From NCBI GenBank assembly GCA_036867785.1, contig CP145421.1:1103132-1123131 (forward strand): 20,000 bases of DNA, written 5' to 3'. Position 1 is the stretch's first letter. Each line of letters starts with the position of its first letter. The notes under the pieces were generated by a model. That model made no database searches. It saw only the letters and a list, made by a program, of their open reading frames with translations, and was not told where the DNA came from. Position numbers and translations under genes: made by a program. Origin of the DNA: Plasmodiophora brassicae (Eukaryota). This document shows positions 1 through 20,000 of this stretch, in pieces.

Positions 1-3000
1 ACTGCAACGTGACTTGCATCCACCGAACCCGGCGACCTCCCCGACCGGATAGTACGAGCTCTTGCGTGGCGCGATGCCACAGCCGACGTCCAGATCTCGC
101 AGCGCTGAGTAGTCGCGGCAGACGGCAACGGCTGTGTTGTCGGGGAAGGGTTCGGCCGACACGTTGGACCCGATGTCGAAGCGCGCGCAGTCCATTAACG
201 TTGACGGCCAGAACGTTCGCAAGTAGCGGCGCACCTCGAGAACGTCGGCGACACACGTCATTTTCATCAACGAGCGCACACCTAGCGCTTGCATCAACAC
301 CATGATGGAGCCGTCAAGCTCATCCTCAAGAGCCTCCAGGACAGCGCGGGCGGACGAAGGTGGCATAACCACGGGGCGGCGGTGGGCCCCAAACTGGTTA
401 AGGTAGTCGTTGATCTCGTCCGGCAGATCTGCTTGGCAGGCACTGAACGCAGCGGAAACCGCCCTGGAGCAGTGCTGCTTGAGGGAACGATGCGTCCAAC
501 GGGGTGCGGCAGCGATTAAGAAGATCGAGACATTTGCCATGGGATGGCAGTCAACCTGACCCAACAGGAATCGCGGCAACTGCGCCACTGACCGCGACGC
601 CTTCTCGTCGTCTCGCTGCACACGCAGATCGTGTACCGAGCTTCCCGTATCCGACTGACGTGCACGGTAGTTCCCGTACCTCTGCATCATGTGCAGGAAG
701 GCAAACGATTTGGCTTCGTGCACAGGAAAGTGCTGCAGCCAGGTCCCGATCGAAGTCGTGATTGCTTGCAAAGAGTCGACGTCAAACACCGGCCGCAATC
801 GCGGGCGACCCCCGTGAGCGTCTGAGGCGCGACGCGCCTCATCCGCCAGATCGAAGCGGAACCGGCCGCAGAAGGCCTCTTTCCTGGGGGATCCGAAGAC
901 ATCCCAGAAGCGTTCGCCGGCGAATTCGTCGAGGTGTATGACCTCAAACGTGGACAGATCCATTGCTGGTGCACTAGCACAGGGCGGCGTCGACTGGCGG
1001 ACGAGGTGGTCTACGGAGGGGTCGATGCGTTCGTCATCGCTTCCGTCGACATTGCTGGGGTCAGGGACGTCGCCGTCATCCATCGAATACGAAGAGTCAG
1101 AATCAGTTTCGACGTCGTCCCCGATTGCGTCGCCTGGGTCAGGGTCATCGCACTCGGAGTCTCCCACCGGATCCTCGCAATCATCACCGACTTCGTCACG
1201 CTCAGCGGCTTCGTGTGCATCCCTGATACGCTCCAGGTATTCTATTGTGCGGTCGTCCTCGTCCCCGTGTTCGACTGGATCTTTGTGCCCGGTGCACTCC
1301 TGCTTAGGCTGGCCATGTCCGTCGCAGACCATTATCATCGGGGCCGGCGCCCTTTCACAACTGACACGTACCGCTGACGACGGCAGTACTTCGAGCCAGA
1401 GCATCGGCGAGCTGTTCCGCAGGTGCATCAGGGGTAGCGCTATTGTAGACAGTACCGCCAAAGCTGCCACTCGTTTGACCGGCAACGAGTCGTCGCCCCT
1501 TCCTAACCGCTACATACGAAGTCAGAAACGTACAGGAACAAGGAATCGCAAAGGCTTACAGCAACGACGTCTGACGTGCCAAACCGCAAAGCGATGATGT
1601 GGGACCGCCGTCTGTCGATCAGAGGGTGGACGACGTCCCACAGGCAGCCGAACGGGACACCGTATTCGTTGAAGAGGGCGTCCACGTTGTCGACCGACAC
1701 TGGCGAATCCAAGAATAGGTCGACGATGACAGGATCGGTGCTCAAACACACTGTGACCATCAAATCCAGCGGCCACAAGCCGCATGATGTAGAGAGCAGG
1801 CTACAGTGGCGCATCATCTGTGCACCAGACGATGGTGTCGCAGTGGTCTGCCGAAGCCATTGGTCGAATTTGTCACGAAGGCCTGCCGGTGAAGCCTGCA
1901 GGCAAGATACGACCTCTCGCCGATGGCGTTCAATCATGCCTTGGTGTGGTGGCACGTGGTCGTGCCAGCACAAGTAAGACAGAAGCCAGCCAGAGACGTT
2001 GCGGAACGAATCCCAGGACAGGTCTTCGCAGGATTCGAACAGCGAGAAAACGGCGGGATCAGGAGCATATCCGTACGTCATGGTGACATCGACCAGGGTC
2101 AGGCGAATGTTGTCCGAAAGCGCCCGGTTCGAGGTACACGTCGTCAGACGACGGCGCCCGGCGAACCACGCACGATGGTCAAATGTCGATTGCAGGAGAT
2201 CATCCATATCGGCATCATCTGACGAAACGGGCAAATCGACCGGGTCTTCCTCAGGCGAAGGATATGGGAGGTCGTCTTCGATAGCAGCGTCAGGAACACG
2301 CGTTGGTGCACCACCGTCCCCGGTTAAAGTTGCCGTCAAGGAGATGCCAGGAGAAGCAGAGCGGTTGTACAGTGTGTCAGCTGGGCACGCGGGTAGGTCA
2401 GCTTGGCCCATTAGTAAGTAATTGGACGCGATAGCAACCCTAAGCCAGATTACCTACCATGACACGAGTCTTCAGCTCCCGCAGCGACGGCGACGGTGGC
2501 GACTTCTGGATGTGCTGCTGAAGTGTCGACGGATGCACCAGAAGGGAGCGGCCCAAGTCGGTCGGCGTGTTGCGCCGGCGCATGTGTCGGGTCAGCTGGT
2601 AGCGATATTTCGATTTCCATCAGAGACGATTTTGAACCACCTAACTCAAAATAAGCAGGTGAATATCGCGTTTGCCGGTGTCGATACCAACCGTCCCCGT
2701 CGTGTTCGTCGTTCATCGCGTCGCCAACGGCGGTCAGAGTCGCACCCGATCGGTCGGTCGTGTGCGACTTGACCACGCCCTTCGAATTCGGAGCGAAGTC
2801 ATCAAACTCGATCAGCGGTGCAACATCGAAAGGTGTGGACTCAATCGACCGTTGCTCGTCTTCGGCAGGCATGTCGTTACGGTTTTCTGCTTCTCTCGGG
2901 TAGTCGTGTCTTGCGATCTCCACCGTCCATCGCCGACGATATAAGCCGATATCGGTTCCCGAAAACCTCATGGGCGACGCGTTCGCCAAGAAGTCAGCGT

Positions 3001-4182
3001 ACTCGATCACGAAGACGCCACAGTCGGTTCCATTGCTCTGCATAGGAAACCGACCGCCAGCACGACGACAGGTCCATTCCACCTCGCATGGGTGGCCAGT
3101 CAGGTCCAGATACAAATCCAGCATGTACTGGATGACGTTGCGACCGAACTCAGTGCGAGGTGGTGTGTGCCTCAGCGAGTCGTACCACTCGACCAGGTGG
3201 AGCTTCGGTTGGACAACCATCAGGAACCAATGGTTAGCGTCACAGATCGGGAAAAATATGAGGTCATAGCCAAACACGGGCTCGTGGGCGAACCATCTGG
3301 CCCACGTTCTCACATTCGCGTAGGCGTACTTGCCATCCTGCATCATCTTCGCATACAACTGCGAGTCGAGCGCAAAGCAGGTCGGGTAGCGTCCAGGCAT
3401 CGTTACGCGACGCATTTCGTCACGCTTGACGATCAGAGACAGGCATGCCATGATAACGGCATCGCTGAGCCAGCATTCGTCGCGAAGGCTCCGGATATCC
3501 CCCTAAAGCAAAAGGCATTCGTGACGAATCAGACTGATGTGCTGATGCGACTAGCTGATTGGTAAGCATTGGCATGCATACAGGTTCGACGGCGACATTG
3601 CCGATTGTGTACGAGCGCCGTGTGGTATCGTTCCAGATCTGTTCGGCTGTGGCGTGAATGTCAGCAACGTCAGGAAGCTCGGTCTCGGCTTCTGGCTGTG
3701 ACAGTGAAGGGGACTGCACACGCCGGTCACGGTCGTCCGAACTTGTAGGAGACGTCTCCGGTCGACGTGCATAATCTTCGTCGACAGATACATGTCAATA
3801 TGGGGGACAAGAGGCCACCATCAGGCTTACTGTTCGAATTGCCATTAGGCGGCAGGATCGTTGAATTACACGCGACGTCTTCGTCGTCCTGGCCGGAACG
3901 AGCCTGACGAGGCTCCAGTATTGCGAAGTCGTGTCCTTGCCTACGGTCTTCAAGCAGAATGCGAGATATAGCACTGAACGTCCTCTTGTCATCCTCAACG
4001 TATGGGTTCGAGTGACCGATGCAACTCCAGTAGTGCCGACGTTTCCGTGCTCGCCTTTTGATGGAACTCTGCAGTGGATCTGTATTGCCAAGCCGCCCCA
4101 TGCCCTGTCGCTTCGATAACGATCTCGGTCAGCCGGCTTAGGCCGTTTCGACTAGCTCAAACCGTACCTTGCGACCGCCCAT
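1..4182 (-). CDS. Gene A: spliced multidomain protein (Ulp1/SENP-type C48 protease, acidic linker, large uncharacterised domain), 3'-partial
   Basis: Exons 4182-4168, 4110-3831, 3775-3582, 3502-2458, 2401-1560 and 1509-<1. Five GT-AG introns (57, 55, 79, 56, 50 bp) all preserve frame. Frame 1509->1 has no stop and is absent from the ORF track. At least 1295 codons. Confidence 0.85.
2900..3620 (-). other. Ulp1/peptidase C48 catalytic domain of gene A, intact triad
   Basis: Spliced translation reads VAVEP|GDIRSLRDECWLSDAVI ... LIFFPICDANHWFLMVV ... HLVEWYDSL ... PMQSNGTDCGVFVIEYA. These are the canonical W-L-x-D, H-W, D-S and Q-x-N-x-x-D-C-G motifs. Confidence 0.93.
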
Positions 4183-4537
4183 AGTAGCAAAGAATATTGC
4201 CCAACTGAGAGGTATGTGGGGCAGTACTCAGGTCAGTACGGGTAGAGAGTCTGTAACGAAGCGGTGCCAATTGCAGATCGACTTTGGAAATGGACGAGGG
4301 CGGCAGATTTGCCCGGAGGCCGCAACGAAGGCCTCGCCCTCGTCTGCCGGAAATAGCCCGCGTCCGAGGGATCAATCCAGAATAGCGACCCAACCGTGTC
4401 GGTATTTCCAAAAATAGATTCCTGACACTATCGACAGCCTCGGAGTTTGGCGAAGGTCTACATTCTCGCGCGACCGTCGCAGAAGTCCGAAGCTGCCGGG
4501 AGGTCGGGTGGCGTTGACCACCACCGCGTTCGGGTTC

Positions 4538-4740
4538 AATTCCGATAGACGGGGGCTGCAATAATAAAGCGCCCGAAAAGTCCGAAGAGCTCCTGAGCGA
4601 AGACCAGTGATCGGATCATCCGGAAACCGACGTCAATCGTGTTGTGATTTAATTCGCGACTATCTCCTTCGAATCGGATCGAATTCGGATAGACGGGGGC
4701 TGCAATAATAAAGCGTCCGAAAAGTCCGAAGAGCTCCTGA
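4538..4740 (+). repeat. 59-bp direct repeat pair (4538-4596, 4682-4740)
   Basis: AATTC(C/G)GATAGACGGGGGCTGCAATAATAAAGCG(C/T)CCGAAAAGTCCGAAGAGCTCCTGA, 2 mismatches, 144-bp period. Confidence 0.95.
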
Positions 4741-5047: not shown

Positions 5048-6110
5048 GTGCCATCACTGGCGTACAACGACCCTGGAGATCGTTCTGGCCGGTTCAGCCG
5101 TGGCGCCGACGTCGTCCAGGCCTGCGTGTCGACCACGACAGACCAGACTGAACAAGCGGCACACGCTGGTTGGGAATGGTATCGCGCCCGCAGAACATTT
5201 GATTGCGACAGGCTCGCGGCAAACGCTTCGCGTCGAGTGGCTCTGATGCGCCCAGGTATGCCCCCGGACCATGTTGTAGTCGACGTGGTTGTCCTGCACG
5301 ACGTCGTTCGGGAACGGGTGTCTTGCCGTGGTGGCGATGGTACATGTCCGGTACCAGGTCGATACGCAGCCATCGAATCAAGGTGGCGGACGGTCAGCAC
5401 GAAGCAGGGGAGAACTCCGTGGAAGGCTGTCGTCGTCGGCGCGACCGACGACCCGATGACGCTGCCTGTCGTCAACGCTGCCCTAAGCAACGTCGTGCGC
5501 GGCCGCCCGACGTGGCATTCGTTCGGCATCGGAGGTCGTCGACGCCTTAACGATTCTGCCTGGCGTGCCTGGCCCGCCCCGACGTCGCCGCCGACAAACT
5601 GCTCGGGCCAATAGAGTCACTAAGACCACAGCACGTCCTGCGGGGCGTCTACTGACGCGCGCCAGATACGTCTGCTGCGACGCCGGGCACCTGTACAACA
5701 GGTTTCAGTTGTCGCCTAATGCAGAGGTTCATAGATCTCTGACACTCTGGACAGGGGTCGCCTGCCGTCGCCGGACCCGCATGAGCACCTGCAGCGACCA
5801 GTCGTCCTGCCAATGAGTCTGCTCTGCTGCGACGTGTTGGCCCAATAACCTGTTGAATCGACTTACATCCCTGGCATTCTGGCTTACATCGGCGATGCTG
5901 GTTTTCGCCGCTGATGCCGCCATGATTGTGGCGCTGGTCCACTGTTGTCATGTAAGCCAGGTCCTGTCCTGGTTGAACTTCAGTGTCTGCGTCTTTCTAA
6001 TGCTGGTCGACAGTCGTCGCGTAATCCAGTTTCTGTCCTGGTCGACCTTCAGGTGACTGCGATCTGCTTGAACCATTTCATTCTGATACGCCACCCGTCG
6101 TTTCCCGCTT
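5048..6110 (+). pseudogene. Decayed copy 1 of an unknown plus-strand subtelomeric gene family
   Basis: Contains RPQHVLRG..., HLYNR split by intron 5702-5754, GCATGAGCACCTGCA, and a block at 6031-6075 matching 7194-7240. It has stops and frameshifts. The 188-aa ORF 5048-5614 may be its upstream part (uncertain). Confidence 0.55.
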
Positions 6111-6449
6111 TTGAACGGTTCTGCTTCTATTCCAGCACACGCCGTGGAGTCGCTCGTCGCCACACGACGCTGTGTCACTTCACGTATGTTAGTCGTCCAT
6201 CGCTTTCGCGGCACGTATCTGACCACTTCTGCAGGATTGTCGCGCGTTTAAGCCGTCGTCGTGCCTCTAGTTGCGCCACGTCTGCTATCTGGCCCGGCTG
6301 ATCAACGGCATCGTGCCGTCAGTTGCATGGCACATACCGAGCCTACCCGCCGAGTGACTCCGGCCGCCGTCCTAAATGTTGTTCTTGACACGTCTGGCGA
6401 CCCGGCGTGCTCGTGCGCTGATGTCGCCGCCGTCCAGCGCGCGCGCTGA

Positions 6450-7260
6450 TCCCCGGAGCGACAACAACCACAACACATCCTGCTGGGCGCCTTACAACAG
6501 CAAGCCGCATACATTAGTGCGAACGCGCTGCACCTACATAACAGGTACGTTTCTTCGCGTAACGCACAGAGCCAGGCCCTCTAATTCGTGCTGGGCAGGG
6601 CACGCCTGCCGTCGCCTGCTGTCTCCCGTTCAGCATGAGCACCTGCAAGGCAGGACAACGTCATGTCGACCTGCTCGTCAACTGCAGCGGCGCGCCGGTC
6701 GTTGCAATCGGTCGCGCGCGCTCGTGTTTGGCGGGGCGATCAAGCAAGGGCGTCGCCGAGGTCCCCGTCCGCATGGCAAGCGGCACCTGCGTGCCGTGCA
6801 AGACGTCCATCTGGGCGTCGGAGCCCACCGCGCCTGCCTGGCGTCCGGCCGTCGTCGGGCGTACTCCCTCAACGAGATTGTCCTGGCGTCTGGCGCCACG
6901 ACGCGTCGTCAGCCCTGCCAGGCATACGGCCACATCCAGATCCGCTCAATACAAACAGACCATGTCAACACGTGGGTATGACGTCACTGGAGATCGGCTT
7001 GGCGTCAGGCGTCACAGAACGGCAGCGTTCCGTGCCACTGGTGAAGTAGGAGGCGCTGGTCGACGCTCGAGAGCTGCGGGATCGCCCTGGCCGCCCGTCG
7101 ATGGCCCGTTACCTTCCCTGCTTTCGTATCCTCACAAGCTGAGCCCTTCAAAGCAAGCAGACCAGATTGAAACGCTGGGGTCCTGCTGAGTCGTTCCTGT
7201 CCAGGTCGACCTTCAGGTGATTGCAAGCTGCTTCAACCATTGCCGTCCGTCGTCATTCGC
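6450..7260 (+). pseudogene. Decayed copy 2 of the same plus-strand family
   Basis: Reads QPQHILLGA...LHLHNR with intron 6545-6598, then KGVAEVPVRMASGTCVPCKTSIW and QIRSIQTDHVNTWV. It aligns by eye with 18650-19260. Confidence 0.65.
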
Positions 7261-7447: not shown

Positions 7448-10400
7448 TTAGTTGTCAGCGACACCGCCACCTCCTTCATCTGGTCCATCGTCGCCTTCAG
7501 CACTTAGCCGTAAGGCAAGTGATTCCACGAGTTCCCGGGCGTGGTCGTCGTTTGGGTTGACATCCAGGTACCTGGAGAGGTAGAACCGTGCCTGGCGCAC
7601 CTCGATATCTGACCATTCCCGTTGGGCGTCCGTGCTGACAGTTCTGATCCATGGGAACCGGCGGTCGAACCGGGCCCACGTCGAATACGCGAAATCAACG
7701 TCGCCACCGCTTGTCGATGTCGACTGGGACTTGCCACTCGATGAAGATGACGATGCTGACGAGGATGGCGTCAATGGCAACGACGACGACAATGCGCGAT
7801 CTTGGCCGCCAGGTTCGTGCCTCGGGCGTTTGTTGGGTCGGGACGGCGAGCCTGGACACGAGTGCGATGATGGCAACGGGGACCCTTGCCGGTCGTGCGG
7901 CCGCTGCTGTTCCGGATGCCGCATCTGTAGATCTGCACGTTTGCAACGAAACAGCGATCAGCATGGATGGAGCGCGACATCAAACCAACACACGTACGGT
8001 TATTGTTCCTCGACGAATGCACCCCGGCCTCGTAGTCGTAGAAGGCAGCGAGTACCTGCGCCCCAGGACGCTGCAGGTACTCGGCGACGCCGTCTTGGTC
8101 GATGCTGGAAATGGTGGTGTCCTGGCAGACAAAGTACTGCATGGAAGGCGTAGAATACATCGTGTCCGGGTTAAGAGCGATCGCGATGTCGACCAGGTCG
8201 CCCGTTCCAGACGGCGCTCGCAGCGCCAGACCAGCTAGCCGCATCATGGATTCACCGAGTACGAATCGGATCGGGCATTCAATCTGAAAAGAATACGTCG
8301 GGGAAGTCAGTCTGAGTTTGCCGCTGCCTCATCCGGCGCCGCTTACCGTGACATCCGGATCGCCCTCCCAGTCCAGACCAGCGACGACGTTTCCGCTCGA
8401 CCGTCGTCCCAATTCACTTGTGAACGTCCGCGCCACAATATGGCGGGTCGTACTGGAGCAGGACGCGCACGTCAGATCCGCCTCGTCGTGAGGCAGTCGG
8501 CCCAGAAGCGTCTGGATTTTGACACTAGCGGGCTTAGGACCCAGAACGTTCAACCTCACCATGACGTAGGGTACACCCTGTCGCCTCTCCGTCCTCAAAC
8601 CTTTGCACGACTTGCACGTCCAGACGCACACGTGGTCAAACGTCATGACCCGCTTCAACAGCGACCACAACGGTGACTGCTGTCTGCCGTCTGTTTCCGC
8701 GAGATCGATGCTTTGGAGGCGAGACAAGATTTCGCCCAGCAAGAGCGCCGGGTGCGCAGCGACTTCTGCGAAGTGACCCAGCACGAGCTGCAACGTCGAC
8801 GTCGCGTGTGACGGATTCATGTTGACGTCCCGCACGAGTTCGGCAAGTGGCTCCAGCCACTCGGCAGACATGTAAGCCCTGACCTGTTGAACGGCGCGGA
8901 CGTAGTCGTTAACGAGAAACTTCGAAGAGCGGAGCACCTGAACTGCGGCAAAGGCCCACCCTAGACCTGCAGTGGCAGGCGCAAAGCCAGAGCGGGGCAG
9001 CCGAACAGGAGACACCGGTGGAACTAAGCTCTAAACGATAACCATTTGCGGTCAGTTCACCGTCTCATGTCGAGTGTTGCCCTAAAGCAGTGACAGACCT
9101 GGCGAGTGTTCGCAGTAGCAGCAGTCGGGCGCTTGGTCATTCGGGCAGGAGATGCATCAGACCTGGACCGCGCCCTGCCTCGAGTGGAACATCCGCGCGA
9201 CGCCTTGCTGGCTCGTGTCGACGACGTCCGCCCTTGCCGACCAACCGCAGACCTGGACCGCGCCCTGCCTCGAGTGGAACCTGCGCGCGACCCCTTGCTC
9301 GCTCGTGTCGACGACGTCCGACCTTGCCGGGCACTGGCCGCAGTCTCCGACGGCAATCGGCGCCGCCGACTCGATCTTGCAGCATTGCCGTCATTATCAT
9401 CATTGTCAACGTCGGCAGCGTGCCCCGGCTGCCACTCCCCGTCGGACTCGTCGACTTCTTCCTCGACCGGCTGACTTGCCGGGCGCCTCTATATCATTAG
9501 AGGTGATCATGGGTAGTACTAAGCATGCGGTCCTGTGGTGATCGATGACGTACCTGCACAGGATGATCATTGGGAGCGCGGACTGCAGGGCCAACAGCAC
9601 CCGCGACAGCGTATATGACCTGTGTGCGCCGTCGGACACACTCGACATACGCCTGGACCAGCTCCCTGACGTCCTCCTCCACGTTAGCGGTATCATTGGA
9701 CTCGTACAGCTTCACCATTGCCAACCACGCCCGCCAGAACATATCCCGGGCGTAGGCGTTGCCGAACTCGATTTCTTCCAGCCTGCCGTTGACGCAAGCG
9801 AGATGCTGATTGCGCAACCTGAACGAACGTGTCGCCTGCCACACGTCCCACCTTGCTGAGGACCCGTCACCGAAGACCAGATAAAACTCTTCGACTGGCA
9901 ACACCAGGTCGTTCTCATTGGAATATGATCCCTCGCGAGCGGAGCCAATATATACAACGGTGTCGTTGCCCAGATACCGTGCATGGCAGAGCATCTGCTG
10001 GAGGCGCTCAGGCGGCGATAGGTGCCCGATCAGTCGGCCCAGGATGGTCTGCGGCGTGATATCGCCCAGCTCCTTCTTCAGCGCCGCATGACAATGCGAA
10101 CGAAGTGCCTGCCCATTTCGCTGGCCGAGCAGCACAGTGTCGAACGTCGGTCTTTGGTACAGGACCGAGCAGTGCGGGTCTGTATACATCGACTGCCAGT
10201 CGACGACGCGGTTTTTTCTGGCTTCGAACGTCGCATGCTTGGCATGATTAACCGCCTGGATGGCGGTCAACATGTTAAAGATGAGGTTGACGTTCTTCCG
10301 ACCTGTCACGGTGCCGGGGAGAGGCATTGGGAGGAACATTTTTGTGGCGACCTCTTGGAGTGATCCGGGCACGTCATTGTGCGGAGACTTCAGGTCCTGA

Positions 10401-11734
10401 ATCGCCGGGAATCTGTCCGACTGGAGAGGGACGATCGCGTCCGGCGGTATCAGTGGCGGAATGCATACCACAATGGCGCGCAGCATGGCGACAACAGCGC
10501 CGTTGGAGAAGCGACCGCTGGCCGCCTGCTGGCGCTCCAGCTGACGGCGGTCCAGCTGATCCGGGTTCAAGCATAGGTTGGCAAATTCGACGGTGACACT
10601 GGGCGGCCTATCGACCAGGACGAAGAACGGGCGAGTCACTCGCCCATGCCTGGTCAGCTTCAGCGAGACGTGGACAGGGTTTCCGGCGACCCACTGCTGG
10701 TCGATCAGCTGAATCATCTTCAGCGCGATCTCGACTCTTGACGCGTTCTTCTGGACACTGCAAAGGTCGTTGAGCAAAGAACCGTGTGCCGTGCGCTCGG
10801 CAGCGCCCGACGTCCACCTCGTCGCAAACCAGACAGCAAACGGAACTGGTTCAGCCGTCTGCGCCGTCGCTGGCAGGTCGGCTCCATCAGCTCCGAGTTT
10901 GCCCAGGTGCTCTCGACTCGGCAAGAAGGCAGCGAAGTTGTAGTCGGCGGGGTCGTTCAGGCCAGGACGCGCATGGCGATGTTGGACGCTACGATCGAGG
11001 ACGCCCAGCTGTCGGAGACGGTCGTACGTGTTGGCCTCTTCGGCCAGCAGAAGGTTCTTCGCCATGAGATGTGCCGTCAGCGCGCTGTTGACGAGCTCTC
11101 GCAGACTGACATGGACGAGCCTGATAACCGCGGCAAGACTGTGAAGGCGTCCGCGGCAGCCGAGCTCTAGCACCAGAGCCATGACGTCCAGGGCCTCGTT
11201 GCGCCCGATAAAGGATGGTCGTCCACCGACGCACGCCAGGCGGAGCATGTCGATGACGTCAGGGTCGAACCAGTACCTGCCAAAGGCACTGCAATGGCGC
11301 AAGTAGTTGAACCTGTTGCGCTCGCAGAGCCAGGGGCCGAGGACCGATGCCGGTGTCATCGTATGGTAAAATCGGTTCGGGTTGATGGAGGATGAATCAA
11401 AAAGCGCATTAAGCGCGTCCTGGCCGATCATCACCACCAGCGTCTGGAAGCGTTGGAGGCACATCATATTGAGGCTACGGACGCCTGGGGCGATGTCGCG
11501 CCGCATCGCATCCAGCATCAGCCGCGGGAACGGCCGGTACATGTAATTAAAACAAGCAGGAACCAAATCCGTAGGGCAAAGGGTAGAGCGCAGGGGGCTC
11601 CAAATATAGCGCTTCGCGGCGAGGCATGTGCTGCTGCTGGCCGCCAGCCGACCGTTTGCCAGCTTGCATGTGGTATCGGCGGGTCGTGTTCCCGGCCCAG
11701 GCTGGCCAGCCGGGCCAAATTGGCATGGCAACAA
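7448..11734 (-). CDS. Gene B: spliced multidomain protein (unknown domain, Arg/Ser repeat, inactive USP/C19-like domain, Ser-rich tail); 5' end probably disrupted
   Basis: Exons ~11734-9554, 9488-9099, 9030-8347, 8283-7998 and 7932-7448. Four GT-AG introns (65, 68, 63, 65 bp) keep frame, giving about 1340 codons. The true start is unclear (first in-frame ATG at 11542, stops just upstream). Confidence 0.8.
8020..9000 (-). other. USP (peptidase C19)-like domain lacking catalytic Cys and His
   Basis: GFAPATAGLGWAFAAVQVL sits at the Cys-box position. Two CxxC pairs (WTCKSC, LTCASC) follow, then VTIECPIRFVL...MRLAGLALR...GDLVDIA...QYFVCQDTTISSI...QVLAAFY, which tracks the USP C-terminal boxes. 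Confidence 0.7.
9158..9329 (-). repeat. 90-bp-period coding tandem repeat (2 copies)
   Basis: 9158-9239 and 9248-9329 encode RQGRTSSTRASK(G/A)SR(A/G)(G/C)STRGRARSRS twice in gene B. Confidence 0.95.
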
Positions 11735-13950
11735 ATTGAGACGTCCCCCGCGTCAAGTCATATTCGGCCGCACGAGCAGATCTCCCAAGGCGGTACAGGC
11801 AGTTGACCTGTGCGGCTGTGTTTAATGAAGAATACGTATGTGTTATGTGTCGGAAACATTGCTTCCGTGCAGTAGAGAAGCTCTGGTGGCCGCTTGCTAC
11901 ATTGGCCGAATGGGACGCGACAGATGGCTTCTCGGTCTTCACACGGAGTTCGGCCACGGTGGCGTCGCTCTACCCTACGCTGGACGCAGAATGGACGGCC
12001 ATTACCCTGAGAATTTCGGCAATTTATTGGTTACCGGCTGTCGCTTTTTTGCGGATGGCGCTCGGCGACGGTCGTAGCGAGCACTGGTCGCCCCGGCTTC
12101 GTGCTCGTTGTGGACCGGCGGCTCGGTCGAGCTGCTGTGCATGTACCTGCATCATGCTGAGCGACATCGATCATTCCTGCTCAGTGAAGGCTTCCTCGGT
12201 CATGAAACCTGCTCCTGGGACTGCGATATGTCAGGAAATTGTGGCCTGGGGGATCACCGTCGTCAGGTACGACGGCGTGTCCAAGTGTGCTCAACGTTCA
12301 CGTTGACGGTCATCTTGGCTTAGAATGTGTCGCGTTTGCGCCGATTCGTTCGCCTTCTCAGGTAGCGCTGGGACCTCCCTGATCGCTCTCGTTGTCGCCG
12401 CGCGCGCCAAACTCACGGTCGTCGTCGCGATGCTCCAGGTCCTGGGTACCGTGCTTTGTGGTGCTGGTCGCGCGGTTCGTGTCGCACTGCTCATGCATGT
12501 CGTCGACCTCTGGTTCATACCCGGGTGCGTCAACGTCCAAATTGCGGGACTTCTGACATCGTCATCGATGTTAACGCGCGTCGCCAGGGTCGTCGGGTTG
12601 GCATGGTTTCAGTGAACTGAGACCGTAACGAAATCTTCCAAGCTTGTCGACAATCGGTCGCATGATTCAGGTGTGGATCTGCCTAAGCGTCGAATTGTTG
12701 CGACTGACGATACGTTGGCTGTAGTCCCACAGCGCCCCCACGAATGTCATCAAGCCAACTCACGAGGTGCCTTGTCAATGGTGCCCAGTTAAAGCGTTCG
12801 TACTAGCTCAGAGCGAACATCGGCGACTGGATGGTCGTCCGTGTCCTCTGCTGCGCCGTGTCGTCATTGATCCACCGTCCGTCCAGCAATTGCGACATCC
12901 ACCCGGTGGATATCTTCACGTTTGAATGGTCAATATCTCGGATAGCTAAGGTGGGCGGAATGTTTATAAATCAGCGAAGTGACTCGGTCAGATATCGACG
13001 CCTTGCGAATAAGACCCGATCATCAATGGAGTAGATGTGGCGCCATCGAAATCAAGGACGTGGTGCTGGACGCTGTCTGCCGGGCGACCTTCGAAATCGA
13101 CGATCGTCTTTTCGACGCGTCCTGCAGCGCATCGAGAAGGCGTTATCGAAGATGACATCGAATACGAGAAGACATCGAATACGAGAACCCGCCCCTTAGA
13201 TTGTGATCTTGGTCATCATGCTTTTGGCATGTGGGAAGCGTATGATTGTCGATCACGGTAGGGTGGAAGTCGTGGACAAACAGGCAATATATCGACTCGT
13301 CGGTTGTCATCTGTCGTCGACACTCACGCGCCTGCCATCGCGTTACCGTTTGCCGTTCCTTCGTATCGTCAGTTCATATTCGCGATCCAAGCGCAAACGG
13401 TGCACGCCCTGAACCGGCAGTCTCCTGTCCGTCATTGTCGATTGCCGATTCGCGTTCGCTATGACGTTCCGACAGGCGCCGCTTTCGTACGGCGCCATTA
13501 TTCAAGAAAGCGACCGGGGACCGCTTAGGCATGCTCAGTCTGCTCTTCTCGACCTTAAAAGGCTGTGTAATCTTTGTCTCTGCCGCCTTGTACTAGGCCT
13601 CAGCATCATCAACACCTTTCATGCCGCTTCGGGGCCGTCCTTGCAAGCGTTTGGCATCAGCTGCGCCAACTACGTGTCGAGGGCGTACAAGATGGTGCCG
13701 ATGTCATAGAGGTGGCACGTCGACCTTACCTAGTGGAGACTAGGCCAGCGTTTGCCGAGCTTGACGACGAGTCCGATCGACCGATAATCCATTGGTCGAA
13801 AACACGCTGGTCATCCGGTTTGACACAGCGTGCGAGCAGAGTCTCGATTGCGAACGACGCCTGACCGTTCATCGTGAGGACGAAATGGCAGCCGTCGAGC
13901 AGCGCCTGACTCACGGCGACGATCGCAGTTGGCACGCGCCTCTGATCCCT
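11735..13950 (-). pseudogene. Decayed 5' half of gene B including a Ulp1 remnant (about 12620-12945) and an acidic tract (about 12360-12540)
   Basis: One frame reads NVKISTGWMSQLLDGRWINDD (W at 12874) ... PLTRHLVSWLDDIR (HLVSWLDDIR at 12769-12740) ... NHATDC (T at 12658), with stops at 12805 and 12685. Further long frames broken by single stops lie on both sides. The outer limit is approximate. Confidence 0.6.
13154..13187. repeat. Perfect 17-bp tandem duplication
   Basis: GACATCGAATACGAGAA occurs twice back to back. Confidence 0.95.
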
Positions 13951-17799: not shown

Positions 17800-18550
17800 T
17801 CACATGTTCCATGCGTCGATGGCGTGCCCAACAAATCAAGGACGTCGCCGAGCTCCCCATCTGCCTAGCAGGCAGCGCCTGCCTGCCGTTCATGTCGGCC
17901 AGTTGAGCGGCGTCGGTCGGCATGCGAATGCCGGCCTGCCGTCAACGACCCGCCGCGATCCCTGCCGGCGTATATATCGCTGCAGCCAGAACCGTTCACT
18001 ACGAGCAGACCAGGTCGACACGCGCGTAAACCGATCCTGCAGGACATCGTGGTCTCGGACGGCGACGAACGGCAACGTTCGCGGCGATCAGTGCAGGGCG
18101 CGGTGCCCGTCGCCAGTCGAGGGCACGGATATCGCCCCCGCATGCATGCCGACCAGGACAGCCAGGACCAGACGAGCATCGCAGGAAGGTCGGGGAACGA
18201 AGCACCCACGTGTGACAGAGGCTGTCGCCCGATTCCCAGCAAACGGCACGCGTCCGCTGTCGCCAATGCGGGTTGGAGCGCCCCCGACCAGGACTGGGAA
18301 GGTGACAACCGCTCACCGATCTGGTTAGGCAGGTTGTTCGTTCATGTTCGTTGCGGTGGTGCACCCAGTTGAAGTACTCCATAAATGCTGGTGCGGTGAC
18401 GTTCACAGAAGCTCGTGGTGAAGGTCTTCGCGTGCTAACCGGCAGGTCAAATCCGAGGGTTTCCGAAAATAAGAAAATCATCGACCCAACCTGGTTGGGC
18501 AGATTGTGGTTCATGTTCGTCGCGGTGGTGTAGCAACCAGTTGTATTCCC
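17800..18550 (+). pseudogene. Decayed copy 3 (partial) of the plus-strand family
   Basis: Reads KDVAELPICLAGSACLPFMSAS* and QNRSLRADQVDTRV. An internal ~60-bp imperfect repeat lies at 18321-18380 versus 18491-18549. Confidence 0.6.
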
Positions 18551-19545
18551 TATCAGAATGGGGATCAGGCGACGTACCCAAAGGCTCGTGAAGATCGTCG
18601 CGTGGTACATAGCTCCAAGGTCATGCTCCGCAGATAGGCGGCACGAGCGAACGGACCCAAGACGACCACAAGGCATCCGGCTGGGCGCCTTCCGACGACC
18701 GCGACCTGCCTGCGATACCGTCATGCACGTTCATCACAGGTGCGAGCCGTTGTCTGATGCACCGGCGCCCAGGCTGACTATCCCGCTGGAAAGGACACGA
18801 TACCGTGTGGCCTGACGTGTTCCGTCCAGCATGAGCACGTGCAGGCCAGCAGCCGCCCTGTCTAGGCGGGATGTGGCCAGCGTCGCGCCGACCTGCTTCT
18901 CCGCTCAGGCGGCGCCCTGGACGTCCTCCGACCACTGCAAGCGGTCGCACGCTCATGTCCTGCACCATGCGTCGATGGCATGCCCAGCCAACCAAGGGCG
19001 TCGCCGACCTCCCTGTCTGCCTGGCAAGCAGCGCCTGTCTGCCCTTCAGGTCGGCCAGTTGAGCGGGGGCGCCCAGCGCCCGTAGTCGTTGGTCGACATG
19101 CGAACGCCGGCCTGTACCGTCAGCGACCCGCCGCGATCCCTGCCGGGATATCGCCTCAGCCAGAACCGTTCACTACGAGCAGACCAGGTCGACACGCGCG
19201 TAAACCGATCCTGCAGGACATCGTGGTCTCGGACGGCGACGAACGGCAACGTTCGCGGCGATCAGTGCAGGGCGCGGTGCCCGCCGCCAGTCGAGGGCAC
19301 GGATATCGCCCCCGCATGCATGCCGACCAGGACAGCCAGGACCAGACGAGCATCGCAGGAAGGTCGGGGAACGAAGCACCCACGTGTGACAGTTGCTGTC
19401 GCCCGATTCCCAGCAAACGGCACGCGTCCGCTGTCGCCAATGCGGGTTGGAGCGCCCCCGACCAGGACTGGGAAGGTGACAACCGCTCACCGATCTGGTT
19501 AGGCAGGTTGTTCGTTCATGTTCGTTGCGGTGGTGCACCCAGTTG
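17983..19545 (+). repeat. Near-identical 389-bp direct duplication (17983-18371 and 19157-19545)
   Basis: Offset 1174 bp, with only about 3 substitutions seen by eye. Confidence 0.95.
18558..19545 (+). pseudogene. Decayed copy 4 of the plus-strand family, truncated by the telomere
   Basis: Reads RPQGIRLGAF...MHVHHR with intron 18740-18793, then KGVADLPVCLASSACLPFRSAS*. It ends directly at the telomere repeats. Confidence 0.65.
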
Positions 19546-20000
19546 GGGCTTTAGGGTTTTAGGGTTTTAGGGCTTAGGGTTTTAGGGTTTTTAGGGTTTT
19601 AGGGTTTTAGGGTTTTAGGGGTTTTAGGGTTTTAGGGTTTTAGGGTTTTAGGGTTTTTTAGGGTTTTAGGGTTTTAGGGTTTTAGGGTTTTAGGGTTTTA
19701 GGGTTTTAGGGTTTTAGGGTTTTAGGGTTTTAGGGTTTTAGGGTTTTAGGGTTTTAGGGTTTTAGGGTTTTAGGGTTTTAGGGTTTTAGGGTTTTAGGGT
19801 TTTAGGGTTTTAGGGTTTTAGGGTTTTAGGGTTTTAGGGTTTTAGGGTTTAGGGTTTTAGGGTTTTAGGGTTTTAGGGTTTTAGGGTTTTAGGGTTTTAG
19901 GGTTTTAGGGTTTTAGGGTTTTAGGGTTTTAGGGTTTTAGGGTTTTAGGGTTTTTAGGGTTTTAGGGTTTTAGGGTTTTAGGGTTTTAGGGTTTTAGGGT
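19546..20000 (+). repeat. Telomere (TTTTAGGG)n
   Basis: More than 50 tandem units to the window end with the G-rich strand running outward. Variant units are concentrated at the proximal end. Confidence 0.99.

Follow-up and report, generated by a model that had tools for sequence, protein, structure and literature searches.

The window analysed here is a 20,000-nucleotide stretch of the Plasmodiophora brassicae genome. Near its first base, on the minus strand and about 15 kb from a TTTTAGGG telomere close to a chromosome end, lies a transcribed, spliced, protein-coding gene of P. brassicae, which a sequence-only reading had proposed to be a single gene with five introns encoding a Ulp1 protease joined to a large unknown domain. 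Contigs from four sequencing runs (X1, X5, X10 and X16) were aligned to the window and compared; the RNA nature of the runs is a guess (each is labelled 'RNA?' or '?'), and the contigs do not show transcript level, strand or ends. The features of the locus, with the evidence for each in brackets, are:

4168 to 4182, minus: putative five-codon first exon of the sequence-only reading, ATG at 4182-4180 (sequence)
4111 to 4167, minus: predicted intron 1, 57 nt, GTACGG..AAG, with a CTGAC motif (no joint in contigs)
3831 to 4110, minus: putative 5' coding exon; contains an in-frame ATG (4101-4099) and a basic, NLS-like RRARKRR run (sequence)
3829 to 3834, no strand: X16 breakpoint, possible edge of a duplicated unit (loose contig ends)
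3776 to 3830, minus: predicted intron 2, 55 nt, GTAAGC..AAG (no joint; an X1 contig reads through 3776-3803)
3582 to 3775, minus: exon 3, transcribed, no in-frame ATG (X1 contig spanning 3581-3803 and joined down to 3502)
3503 to 3581, minus: intron 3, 79 nt, GTATGC..TAG (joint in one of four runs)
2692 to 3502, minus: Peptidase_C48 (Ulp1/SENP) exon, domain at about 3472-2909 (Pfam, SENP2 alignment)
Within it, minus: active-site codons for Trp (3472-3470), His (3232-3230), Asp (3181-3179), Gln (3040-3038) and Cys (3022-3020) (sequence and alignment)
2641 to 2691, minus: sixth intron, absent from the sequence-only reading, 51 nt, in frame, GTTGGT..TAG (joint in X1 and X5)
2458 to 2640, minus: exon, a piece of low-complexity linker after the protease (RNA-like contigs)
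2402 to 2457, minus: intron, 56 nt, GTAGGT..AAG, with a TACTAAT motif (joint in two of four runs)
1560 to 2401, minus: exon 5, 280 residues, acidic linker followed by an orphan region (RNA-like contigs)
1510 to 1559, minus: intron, 50 nt, GTAAGC..TAG, with a CTGAC motif (joint in two of four runs)
14 to 1509, minus: exon 6, orphan tail, 498 codons (open frame)
1 to 13, minus: another intron probably begins here, with GT at 13-12 (X1 and X10 contigs diverge)
1237 to 3323, plus: spliced antisense RNA with four GT..AG introns at 1237-1307, 2414-2475, 2599-2658 and 3263-3323 (contig joints)
19546 to 20000, plus: telomere array (TTTTAGGG)n (end of window)

Three minus-strand open frames underlie the gene: 1..1509 (503 codons, running off the window edge), 1503..2453 (316 codons) and 2450..3502 (350 codons). 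When bases 1-4200 were shuffled 500 times and the longest stop-free run was taken from each shuffle, the mean was 156 codons and the maximum 287, so that all three frames lie far beyond chance. The five introns first proposed are all GT..AG (57, 55, 79, 56 and 50 nt), and once they are cut out 1295 codons (3885 nt) read through with no stop. They had also been described as frame-preserving, which is mistaken: the 57-nt intron alone has a length divisible by three, and the other four shift the frame. The confirmed large exons have a GC3 of 0.64-0.70, against an overall GC of 0.44-0.54 in the introns, and codon bias is weaker in the 5' exons (GC3 0.56-0.57, with 0.57 for the exon at 3831..4110).

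Joints at 1509|1560 and 2401|2458 are present in two of the four runs (X1 and X5, from two studies), that at 3501/2|3581/2 in one of the four (X1) and that at 2638|2690 (cut +2) in X1 and X5; splicing of the intron marked by the last of these takes out 17 residues. In X16 none of these joints is found and all of these introns are retained, from which we conclude that X16 behaves as DNA. Four introns are thus removed in the RNA-like contigs of X1 and X5 and kept in the DNA-like contigs of X16, which supports the gene model. Among the five introns originally predicted, 3581-3503, 2457-2402 and 1559-1510 are spliced, whereas no RNA joint is seen for 4167/4111 or 3830/3776. The model is also supported by the lengths of the introns (50-79 nt) and their CTGAC-type motifs, in that these agree with the figures for P. 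brassicae (median length 55, commonest motif TCTGAC/CTGACR) in the portion of PMC2483917 available to us. That the separate frames form one spliced gene was borne out by an X1 contig of 3041 nt which runs from 103 to 3300, crosses three removed introns and so links the protease exon to the 503-codon tail. RNA-like contigs also run past the unspliced stops at 2450 and 1503, where transcripts of separate genes would have ended. About 1265 codons are free of stops across six exons.

At the 5' end, exon 3 has no in-frame ATG, so an intact protease needs the putative exon upstream of it. The in-frame ATG of that exon, at 4101-4099, makes the proposed five-codon first exon unnecessary, and the basic RRARKRR run lies 16 residues past it. 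At 93 codons the exon is below the length of chance open frames. Bases 3926-4396 are uncovered by the RNA-like contigs of X1, X5 and X10, which is neutral with regard to the 5' exons; one X1 contig is unspliced through 3776-3803 and then continues into 26 letters foreign to the window. At the other end of the gene, X1 and X10 contigs depart from the window sequence at base 13, a GT on the minus strand, and 255 other letters follow. Exon 6 probably ends at 14, with the gene continuing past the window via another intron.

The protease domain matches PF02902 (Peptidase_C48) with an E-value of 1.8e-20 and a score of 74.2 bits (cut-off 20.7), over profile positions 2-211 of 217. Eighteen solved chains match at E <= 0.01, all of them SUMO proteases by their depositors' names. 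The best is SENP2 (1tgz_A, E 2.8e-17), followed by SENP1 (3.4e-15), with yeast Ulp1 (E 1.9e-5) and Ulp2 (5lnb_B, E 0.0093) far behind; by these scores the domain is Ulp1/SENP1-2-like and not Ulp2-like. The WLxD, HW, DS and QxNGxDCG motifs are all aligned with those of SENP2 1tgz_A, cWLsD of the protein with hWLnD of SENP2 and QsNGtDCG with the same SENP2 motif. The claim of an intact His-Asp-Cys triad held, as all three codons are present and aligned with SENP2. We take the Gln of QsNGtDCG to be the oxyanion Gln, and the Trp of cWLsD is presumably the one that covers the SUMO Gly-Gly tail and closes its tunnel. With a score above the profile threshold, the triad together with the oxyanion Gln, and the Trp of the Gly-Gly tunnel, the domain belongs to C48. 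The available text of PMC6759571 describes the His-Asp-Cys triad and the tunnel over the SUMO Gly-Gly tail for this family. From the conserved active site, deSUMOylation can reasonably be inferred. Papers retrievable by title or abstract on Plasmodiophora SUMO proteases include none on a P. brassicae enzyme.

What follows the protease is harder to place. The tail has acidic low-complexity linkers and two globular-looking regions, with an acidic stretch in exon 6 of 32 Asp/Glu per 80 residues. About 900 residues have no Pfam, solved-structure, metagenome or viral match. A word-indexed search of proteins of 276-881 aa gave none among 7998 candidates, and a full HMMER search over 1.84 billion representative proteins gave one match, P0001 (115 aa, E 1.7e-9), which comes from a single 1787-nt contig. 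The Atlas search gave no usable match for the tail, and the middle exon had no PDB or Pfam match. None of 2858 candidates 614-2000 aa long was a fused relative of the protease open frame; pattern matches numbered 204 and 95 in metagenome contigs and 34 and 7 in viral contigs, none of which was confirmed as a relative. Two weak hits to the tail were set aside: FabG in the PDB (E about 0.8-0.9, taken as chance) and, as the only Pfam entry at E <= 10, DUF7939 (E 0.19 on a sub-fragment, under its cut-off). In AlphaFold2 models made without an alignment, mean pLDDT was 41.3 (exon 5) and 36.0 (tail), too low to use; the tail has no recognisable fold at that score, and the orphan region of exon 5 is predicted, with low confidence, to be mostly helical. 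Apart from the P0001 fragment, then, this considerable length of expressed protein has no known relatives.

The protease region has one close relative. Among proteins of 192-613 aa, the only match is the NCBI P. brassicae protein P0002 (249 aa), which is 77% identical over 246 residues and lies on another contig. The P0002 model, annotated as 'Ubiquitin-like protease family profile domain-containing protein', begins with an internal Met and runs on into the counterpart of the 51-nt intron, left unspliced, where it stops; it is probably truncated at both ends. It keeps all five active-site and clamp residues, with a Gly-to-Val change beside the Cys. In X16, 151 of 452 aligned contigs are 95-99% alike, and its contigs are short and broken, which points to near-identical extra copies or strain variants. 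X16 contigs depart from the window sequence at 3829-3834, in both directions, and at 2326; the loose-end letters at 3829 and 3834, like those of the X1 contig at 3803, are absent from the window with up to three mismatches allowed.

The surroundings of the gene are those of a chromosome end, and a TTTTAGGG telomere is reported for P. brassicae in the accessible parts of PMC6823432 and PMC11191646. Just upstream, at 4530-4740, is a high-copy repeat with an X16 depth of 19095, as against about 540-3500 in the other 29 bins (1-4553). A neighbouring frame of 751 codons (9497-11752) resembles neither the tail nor the middle exon and matched nothing in Pfam, the PDB or the Atlas. The window contains no tRNA and no Rfam family. 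The antisense RNA is supported by three joints in X10 and one in X5. A coding antisense gene was considered and rejected, as the longest spliced open frame, at 267 codons, is within the chance range. As a case of spliced antisense transcription across a subtelomeric gene the locus is a clean one, and it comes from a species in which the RNAi pathway was described only recently (PMC13547706, in the part accessible to us).

The layout of the protein had suggested a transposon- or virus-type polyprotein. This found no support: neither the gene nor 72 other frames contain a transposase, integrase, reverse transcriptase, capsid or ubiquitin-like domain. The gene has no Pfam family besides C48, and none of the 72 open frames of at least 90 codons beyond base 4200, nor any of 10 further frames, reaches a Pfam cut-off. 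No relative was confirmed in viral contigs, there is no capsid, polymerase or integrase Pfam family in the window as expected of viral or Polinton polyproteins, and self-processing of the protein is not supported. A subtler alternative, which we consider unlikely, is that the gene encodes the main protein of an undescribed mobile element, its tail containing an unrecognised enzyme of transposition or recombination to which the SUMO protease would be fused. Zisupton and KDZ elements may carry Ulp1-like domains, but no paper linking Zisupton with Ulp1 and a transposase was found, and they are not counted as precedents here. There are precedents in Ginger1 transposases, which bear a C-terminal Ulp1, and in hydra, lancelet and plant Mutator elements that also carry Ulp1 (PMC2836005, available text). 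The near-identical extra pieces with X16 divergence at 3829/3834 and 2326, the paralogue on another contig, the subtelomeric position, the overlapping antisense RNA and the upstream high-copy repeat would all suit such an element. However, the window holds no transposase or integrase in the same protein or element, and no Pfam family is recognised in the tail even at the relaxed threshold; the gene has no flanking inverted repeat in the window, although one end of a unit would fall outside it, the tail fold was not predictable, protein collections gave just the paralogue and the fragment, metagenome contigs gave no relatives, and a count of at least six spliceosomal introns would be high for a young transposon gene. 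A bolder version of this idea, which we regard as distinctly improbable, would make the gene the signature protein of an undescribed Phytomyxea-specific element, mobile or telomere-linked: the tail would be a new DNA-transaction enzyme coupled N-terminally to a SUMO protease, 3829-3834 the element end and the antisense RNA a mark of host silencing.

Partial copies with different flanks and a spliced antisense transcript could also be the marks of a duplicate that is transcribed but has no function, a pseudogene or chimera near the telomere in which the long frame is still undecayed. The unsettled translation start, the X1 contig that reads through proposed intron 2 and the lack of a self-match in the protein collections searched would agree with this, but we hold it very improbable in view of a frame open over some 1265 codons, four introns correctly spliced in two studies, and the retention of the five active-site and clamp residues both here and, save for the Gly-to-Val change, in P0002. 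Least probable to our minds is a host-directed effector, a SUMO protease that would be delivered to Brassica cells and reshape SUMOylation there, as the bacterial C48 effector XopD does in its hosts. P. brassicae is a plant pathogen living inside host cells, the gene is species-specific, duplicated and subtelomeric, the stretch is present in runs under four different organism labels, and C48 effectors are known in plant-associated bacteria from the literature accessible to us; no hydrophobic signal-like stretch, however, follows either candidate N terminus (ATG 4182 or ATG 4101, by eye), and at least 1265 residues would be very large for a secreted effector, though a missed 5' exon might still encode a signal peptide. 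Judged by the extra copies, the breakpoints (3829-3834, 2326) and the antisense RNA, a mobile or decaying element does no worse than a cellular gene family, which counts against the reading preferred below.

On balance we lean towards a reading that, judged as one whole, makes the gene a lineage-specific, duplicated and probably nuclear SUMO protease, with at least six introns, a product of at least about 1265 residues and a lineage-specific tail, from a gene family that public annotation has missed or truncated. The short basic N-terminal part would probably serve as a nuclear localisation signal. The C48 protease, acting through its His-Asp-Cys triad and oxyanion Gln with the Trp clamping the Gly-Gly tail, would strip SUMO from conjugates, mature the SUMO precursor, or both, as its conservation suggests. 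The tail may decide the place and the substrate of the enzyme, like the variable non-catalytic parts of other ULPs, and the gene would be a member of a small, recently duplicated family within P. brassicae. If this SUMO-protease model is true, an important crop parasite contains several large SUMO proteases, a family that annotation misses or trims to the bare domain, with a bearing on gene catalogues, effector screens and SUMO biology in Rhizaria, to our knowledge a supergroup with almost no functional data. No current knowledge is overturned; the result is a solid re-annotation plus an open question.

Compared with known systems, the gene as predicted has an unusual layout, a SUMO-type protease joined to some 900 residues found almost nowhere else. 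Ginger1 and MULE Ulp1 proteins resemble it in that C48 is attached to a large protein of another kind, in a context that may be multicopy here as well (PMC2836005, as far as its available text goes). In Ginger1, however, Ulp1 is C-terminal to a recognisable integrase-type DDE transposase, whereas here C48 is N-terminal and the window yielded neither a transposase nor a zinc finger nor a terminal inverted repeat. P0002, from the same species, shares the catalytic residues and the 77% identity but is annotated as a single 249-aa open frame. With SENP1, SENP2 and yeast Ulp1 the protein shares a catalytic domain of about 190 residues and the same aligned motifs; their domain is C-terminal, while here it lies at residues 166-353 or so of at least 1265, tied to the tail by spliced contigs and followed by about 900 or more residues without detectable relatives, so that the proposed position of the protease near the N terminus was correct and the canonical Ulp1/SENP architecture is not the one found. 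The accompanying premise, that housekeeping Ulp1/SENP enzymes carry the protease at the C terminus, describes what is typical but is not universal: according to the portion of PMC6759571 available to us, the domain of Arabidopsis ELS2 is nearer the N terminus and those of SPF1 and SPF2 are central in much larger proteins. From the Ulp2 type the gene differs in its Ulp1/SENP1-2-like domain, outside which no similarity was detected. In overall plan it is nonetheless like yeast Ulp2 and Arabidopsis SPF1, SPF2 and ELS2, large proteins that the same text describes as having a domain that is central or near the N terminus and long non-catalytic regions.

The low end of the window holds three long open frames on the minus strand:

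2450-3502, minus strand: open frame of 350 codons
1503-2453, minus strand: open frame of 316 codons
1-1509, minus strand: open frame of 503 codons, reaching the window edge without a stop

When bases 1-4200 were shuffled 500 times and the longest stop-free run recorded, the mean was 156 codons and the maximum 287; as all three frames exceed this maximum, they are not due to chance. The 350-codon frame, the only one of six frames of the gene with a Pfam match, matches Peptidase_C48 over profile positions 2-211 of 217 (E 1.8e-20; 74.2 bits against a cut-off of 20.7). It also matches 18 distinct solved chains at E <= 0.01, including SENP2 (E 2.8e-17), SENP1 (3.4e-15), an 'Ulp1-like SUMO protease' (9.9e-12), SENP5 (1.1e-8), SENP7 (1.3e-5), yeast Ulp1 (1.9e-5), a SENP3 fusion (4.9e-5) and Ulp2 (0.0093). 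Alignment with SENP2 sets cWLsD, nHW, yDS and QsNGtDCG opposite hWLnD, vHW, lDS and QlNGsDCG. The His-Asp-Cys triad, described as intact in an earlier sequence-only reading of this DNA, is indeed so, its residues aligning with the SENP2 motifs HW, DS and DCG. We take the aligned Trp to be the clamp Trp and the aligned Gln to be the oxyanion Gln. Together, the Pfam match and the aligned motifs make this look like an active enzyme of the Ulp1/SENP1-2 type. The catalytic triad and Gly-Gly tunnel of ULPs are described in an excerpt of PMC6759571.

Five introns had been proposed to join these frames, at 4167/4111, 3830/3776, 3581/3503, 2457/2402 and 1559/1510 (57, 55, 79, 56 and 50 nt). All are GT..AG, with 5' sites GTACGG, GTAAGC, GTATGC, GTAGGT and GTAAGC in that order, and have CTGAC-, TTGAC-, CTGAT- or CTAAT-type motifs 10-27 nt upstream of the 3' end; their excision leaves 1295 codons without a stop. 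Their lengths and motifs fit those that a comparative intron study, PMC2483917, tabulates for 86 P. brassicae introns (mean length 55.7 and median 55, with TCTGAC/CTGACR as the commonest motif, the columns as we read them). The description of these introns as frame-preserving was mistaken: only the first is a multiple of three, and the other four are needed precisely because their excision changes the frame.

Evidence for splicing comes from a comparison, over bases 1-4700, of contigs from four public sequencing runs, all of them contig sets whose kind is guessed (X1, X5 and X10 RNA-like, X16 DNA-like). Sense joints were found as follows:

1559-1510, minus strand: intron, joint 1509/1560 in X1 and X5
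2457-2402, minus strand: intron, joint 2401/2458 in X1 and X5
2691-2641, minus strand: intron, joint 2638/2690 (cut +2) in X1 and X5
3581-3503, minus strand: intron, joint 3501/3581 (cut +1) in X1

X1 and X5 come from two studies, and in each the first three joints are carried by one contig (3041 nt in X1, 2982 nt in X5). Of the eight joints on the two strands, not one occurs in X16, whose contigs cross the introns unspliced; X16 thus behaves as DNA and the joined forms are RNA products. Three of the five proposed introns (3581-3503, 2457-2402 and 1559-1510) therefore stand, whereas 4167/4111 and 3830/3776 have no joint in the four runs. The RNA-like contigs also have a coverage gap at 3926-4396. 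The intron at 2691-2641 (51 nt, GTTGGT..TAG), whose excision removes 17 residues, had escaped notice because it contains no stop and keeps the frame.

One X1 contig connects 103-3300 and overlapping contigs extend to 3803, a linkage over 103-3803 that puts the tail of 503 codons in one spliced RNA with the protease exon. That transcripts should run past the unspliced stops at 2450 and 1503 was a check named beforehand for a single spliced gene, and they do. Contigs of X1 and X10 depart from the window at base 13 and continue for 255 letters; the minus strand has GT at 13-12, and on our reading the 30 letters beyond base 13 are open in frame. The departure at 13 and the GT indicate that the exon probably ends at 14 and that the protein extends beyond the window. 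The splice model is one with an intron to add and its 5' end left open.

At that 5' end, exon 3 (3775-3582) lacks an in-frame ATG, so an upstream exon is required for an intact protease, and from the in-frame stop at 3797-3795 to the start of exon 3 the sole acceptor is the AG at 3777-3776. An in-frame ATG at 4101-4099 could serve as the start without the five-codon first exon proposed earlier, and the run RRARKRR, resembling a nuclear localisation signal, lies 15 residues after it. Excision of six introns leaves, within the window, a protein of 1265 residues if translation begins at ATG 4101, against 1273 from the start first proposed. Neither 5' exon is as long as frames that arise by chance, and their third-position G+C is weaker, at 0.56-0.57 against 0.64-0.70 in the confirmed large exons. 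One X1 contig is unspliced through 3776-3803, within the second proposed intron, and then carries 26 letters foreign to the window. Contigs of X16 exit the window sequence both ways at 3829 and 3834, the proposed donor site of that intron, and also at 2326, and the foreign letters at these exits are absent from the window. The exits seem to reflect other gene-body copies with different upstream DNA; there are thus partial copies, flanked by other DNA, elsewhere or in other strains, and the X1 read-through contig may derive from such a differently flanked copy.

A paralogue is also found among public proteins. P0002, a 249-aa P. brassicae protein at NCBI, is 77% identical to the protease frame and is the sole resembling protein at 192-613 aa. 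Its first residue is a Met that lies within the C48 domain, and its end falls in the unspliced equivalent of the 51-nt intron, bounds that mark a gene called as one frame with the splicing overlooked; to judge from its sequence, the public model is probably cut short at both ends. The window's own protein was not returned by any protein search, and hence the searched public protein sets lack the protease gene. The finding itself is real, and it is better than the public annotation.

Beyond the C48 domain, stretches of the protein are acidic and of low complexity (one run of 80 residues has 32 Asp/Glu), and there are two regions of ordinary hydrophobic content. For this rest of the protein, nothing in Pfam reached a cut-off (searched at E <= 10), solved structures gave no credible match and the protein atlas no usable one, a word-indexed protein search returned none, and no relative was found in metagenome or viral contigs. 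A full HMMER search of the tail over 1.84 billion representatives identified one relative, P0001, a 115-aa fragment from a single contig (E 1.7e-9; identity 37% across 81 residues). Alignment-free structure prediction of the tail regions gave pLDDT values of 41 and 36, too low for a usable model. On these sequence comparisons the tail is effectively an orphan.

The opposite strand of the gene carries introns of its own:

1237-1307, plus strand: antisense intron, GT..AG
2414-2475, plus strand: antisense intron, GT..AG
2599-2658, plus strand: antisense intron, GT..AG
3263-3323, plus strand: antisense intron, GT..AG

Joints for these four introns (60-71 nt) were seen in X10 (three) and X5 (one), and X10 contigs retain the sense introns unspliced, indicating that the opposite strand is transcribed and spliced on its own. 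In the spliced antisense RNA the longest open frame has 267 codons, a length that chance can produce, and the RNA over 1237-3323 is probably non-coding.

The gene's surroundings (window G+C 54-65%) are those of a chromosome end:

19546-20000, plus strand: telomere array (TTTTAGGG)n, ~450 bases, with some variant units close to the inner edge
17809-19560 and 5612-7241: ~1.17-kb subtelomeric repeat, two tandem copies within the 2.4 kb adjoining the telomere
4530-4740: 67-nt direct repeat pair, 93% identical and 144 nt apart, directly upstream of the protease gene
9497-11752, minus strand: open frame of 751 codons, same strand as the protease gene

The eight-base unit TTTTAGGG is known from P. 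brassicae, according to excerpts of PMC6823432, PMC11191646 and PMC13547706. Since the array closes the window, the window is a chromosome end and the protease gene lies ~15 kb from it. The tandem copies of the 1.17-kb repeat are 98% identical over 300 nt (17974-18273 versus 19148-19447), with diverged pieces (64-88%) at 5.6-7.2 kb, 11-12 kb further inward. The stretch at 4530-4740 has a depth in X16 of 19095, against ~540-3500 in the other 29 bins (1-4553), is also covered by contigs of X1 and X5, and is probably a dispersed high-copy repeat. Pfam, PDB and the Atlas gave no match for the 751-codon frame, nor does it resemble the tail of the protease gene; the frame is probably another large subtelomeric orphan gene. 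Downstream of it lie same-strand neighbours at 8329-9030 and 7448-7957 (minus strand), and there is a 90-nt tandem duplication at 9158-9329. Between 4200 and the telomere, none of 72 open frames of at least 90 codons reached a Pfam cut-off, three sub-threshold matches being attributed to chance; ten further frames gave none above cut-off, and no tRNA or Rfam family was found in the window.

On balance, we lean towards a SUMO protease that is specific to its lineage, duplicated recently and probably nuclear, with a long non-catalytic part steering it to substrates or places. By analogy with other ULPs, whose variable regions are thought to direct the enzymes in this way (PMC6759571, in excerpt), the long part would do so here. 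That the gene instead encodes a transposon protein is unlikely, although Ginger1 transposases with a C-terminal Ulp1 domain, and Mutator elements with a Ulp1 domain, provide a precedent (PMC2836005, in excerpt), and the extra copies, DNA-level breakpoints, antisense RNA and subtelomeric site all fit. Every test for transposition machinery was, however, negative within the window, beyond which one end of any element would lie. With these tests negative and no relative among viral contigs, the transposon- or virus-type origin suggested by the sequence-only reading was not borne out, and the associated idea of a self-processing polyprotein found no support.

That this is a decaying duplicate is improbable for a gene with ~1265 codons open, active-site residues intact and splicing correct. 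Least probable is a host-directed effector, no signal-like N terminus being visible.

The rule invoked in the sequence-only reading, that housekeeping Ulp1/SENP enzymes carry the protease at the C terminus, holds for the typical case but has exceptions in the excerpted account of PMC6759571: in ELS2 the domain lies nearer the N terminus, and in SPF1 and SPF2 it is central, in much larger proteins. The architecture described here is a new variant, in which a member of a well-known enzyme family is joined to an orphan partner region.
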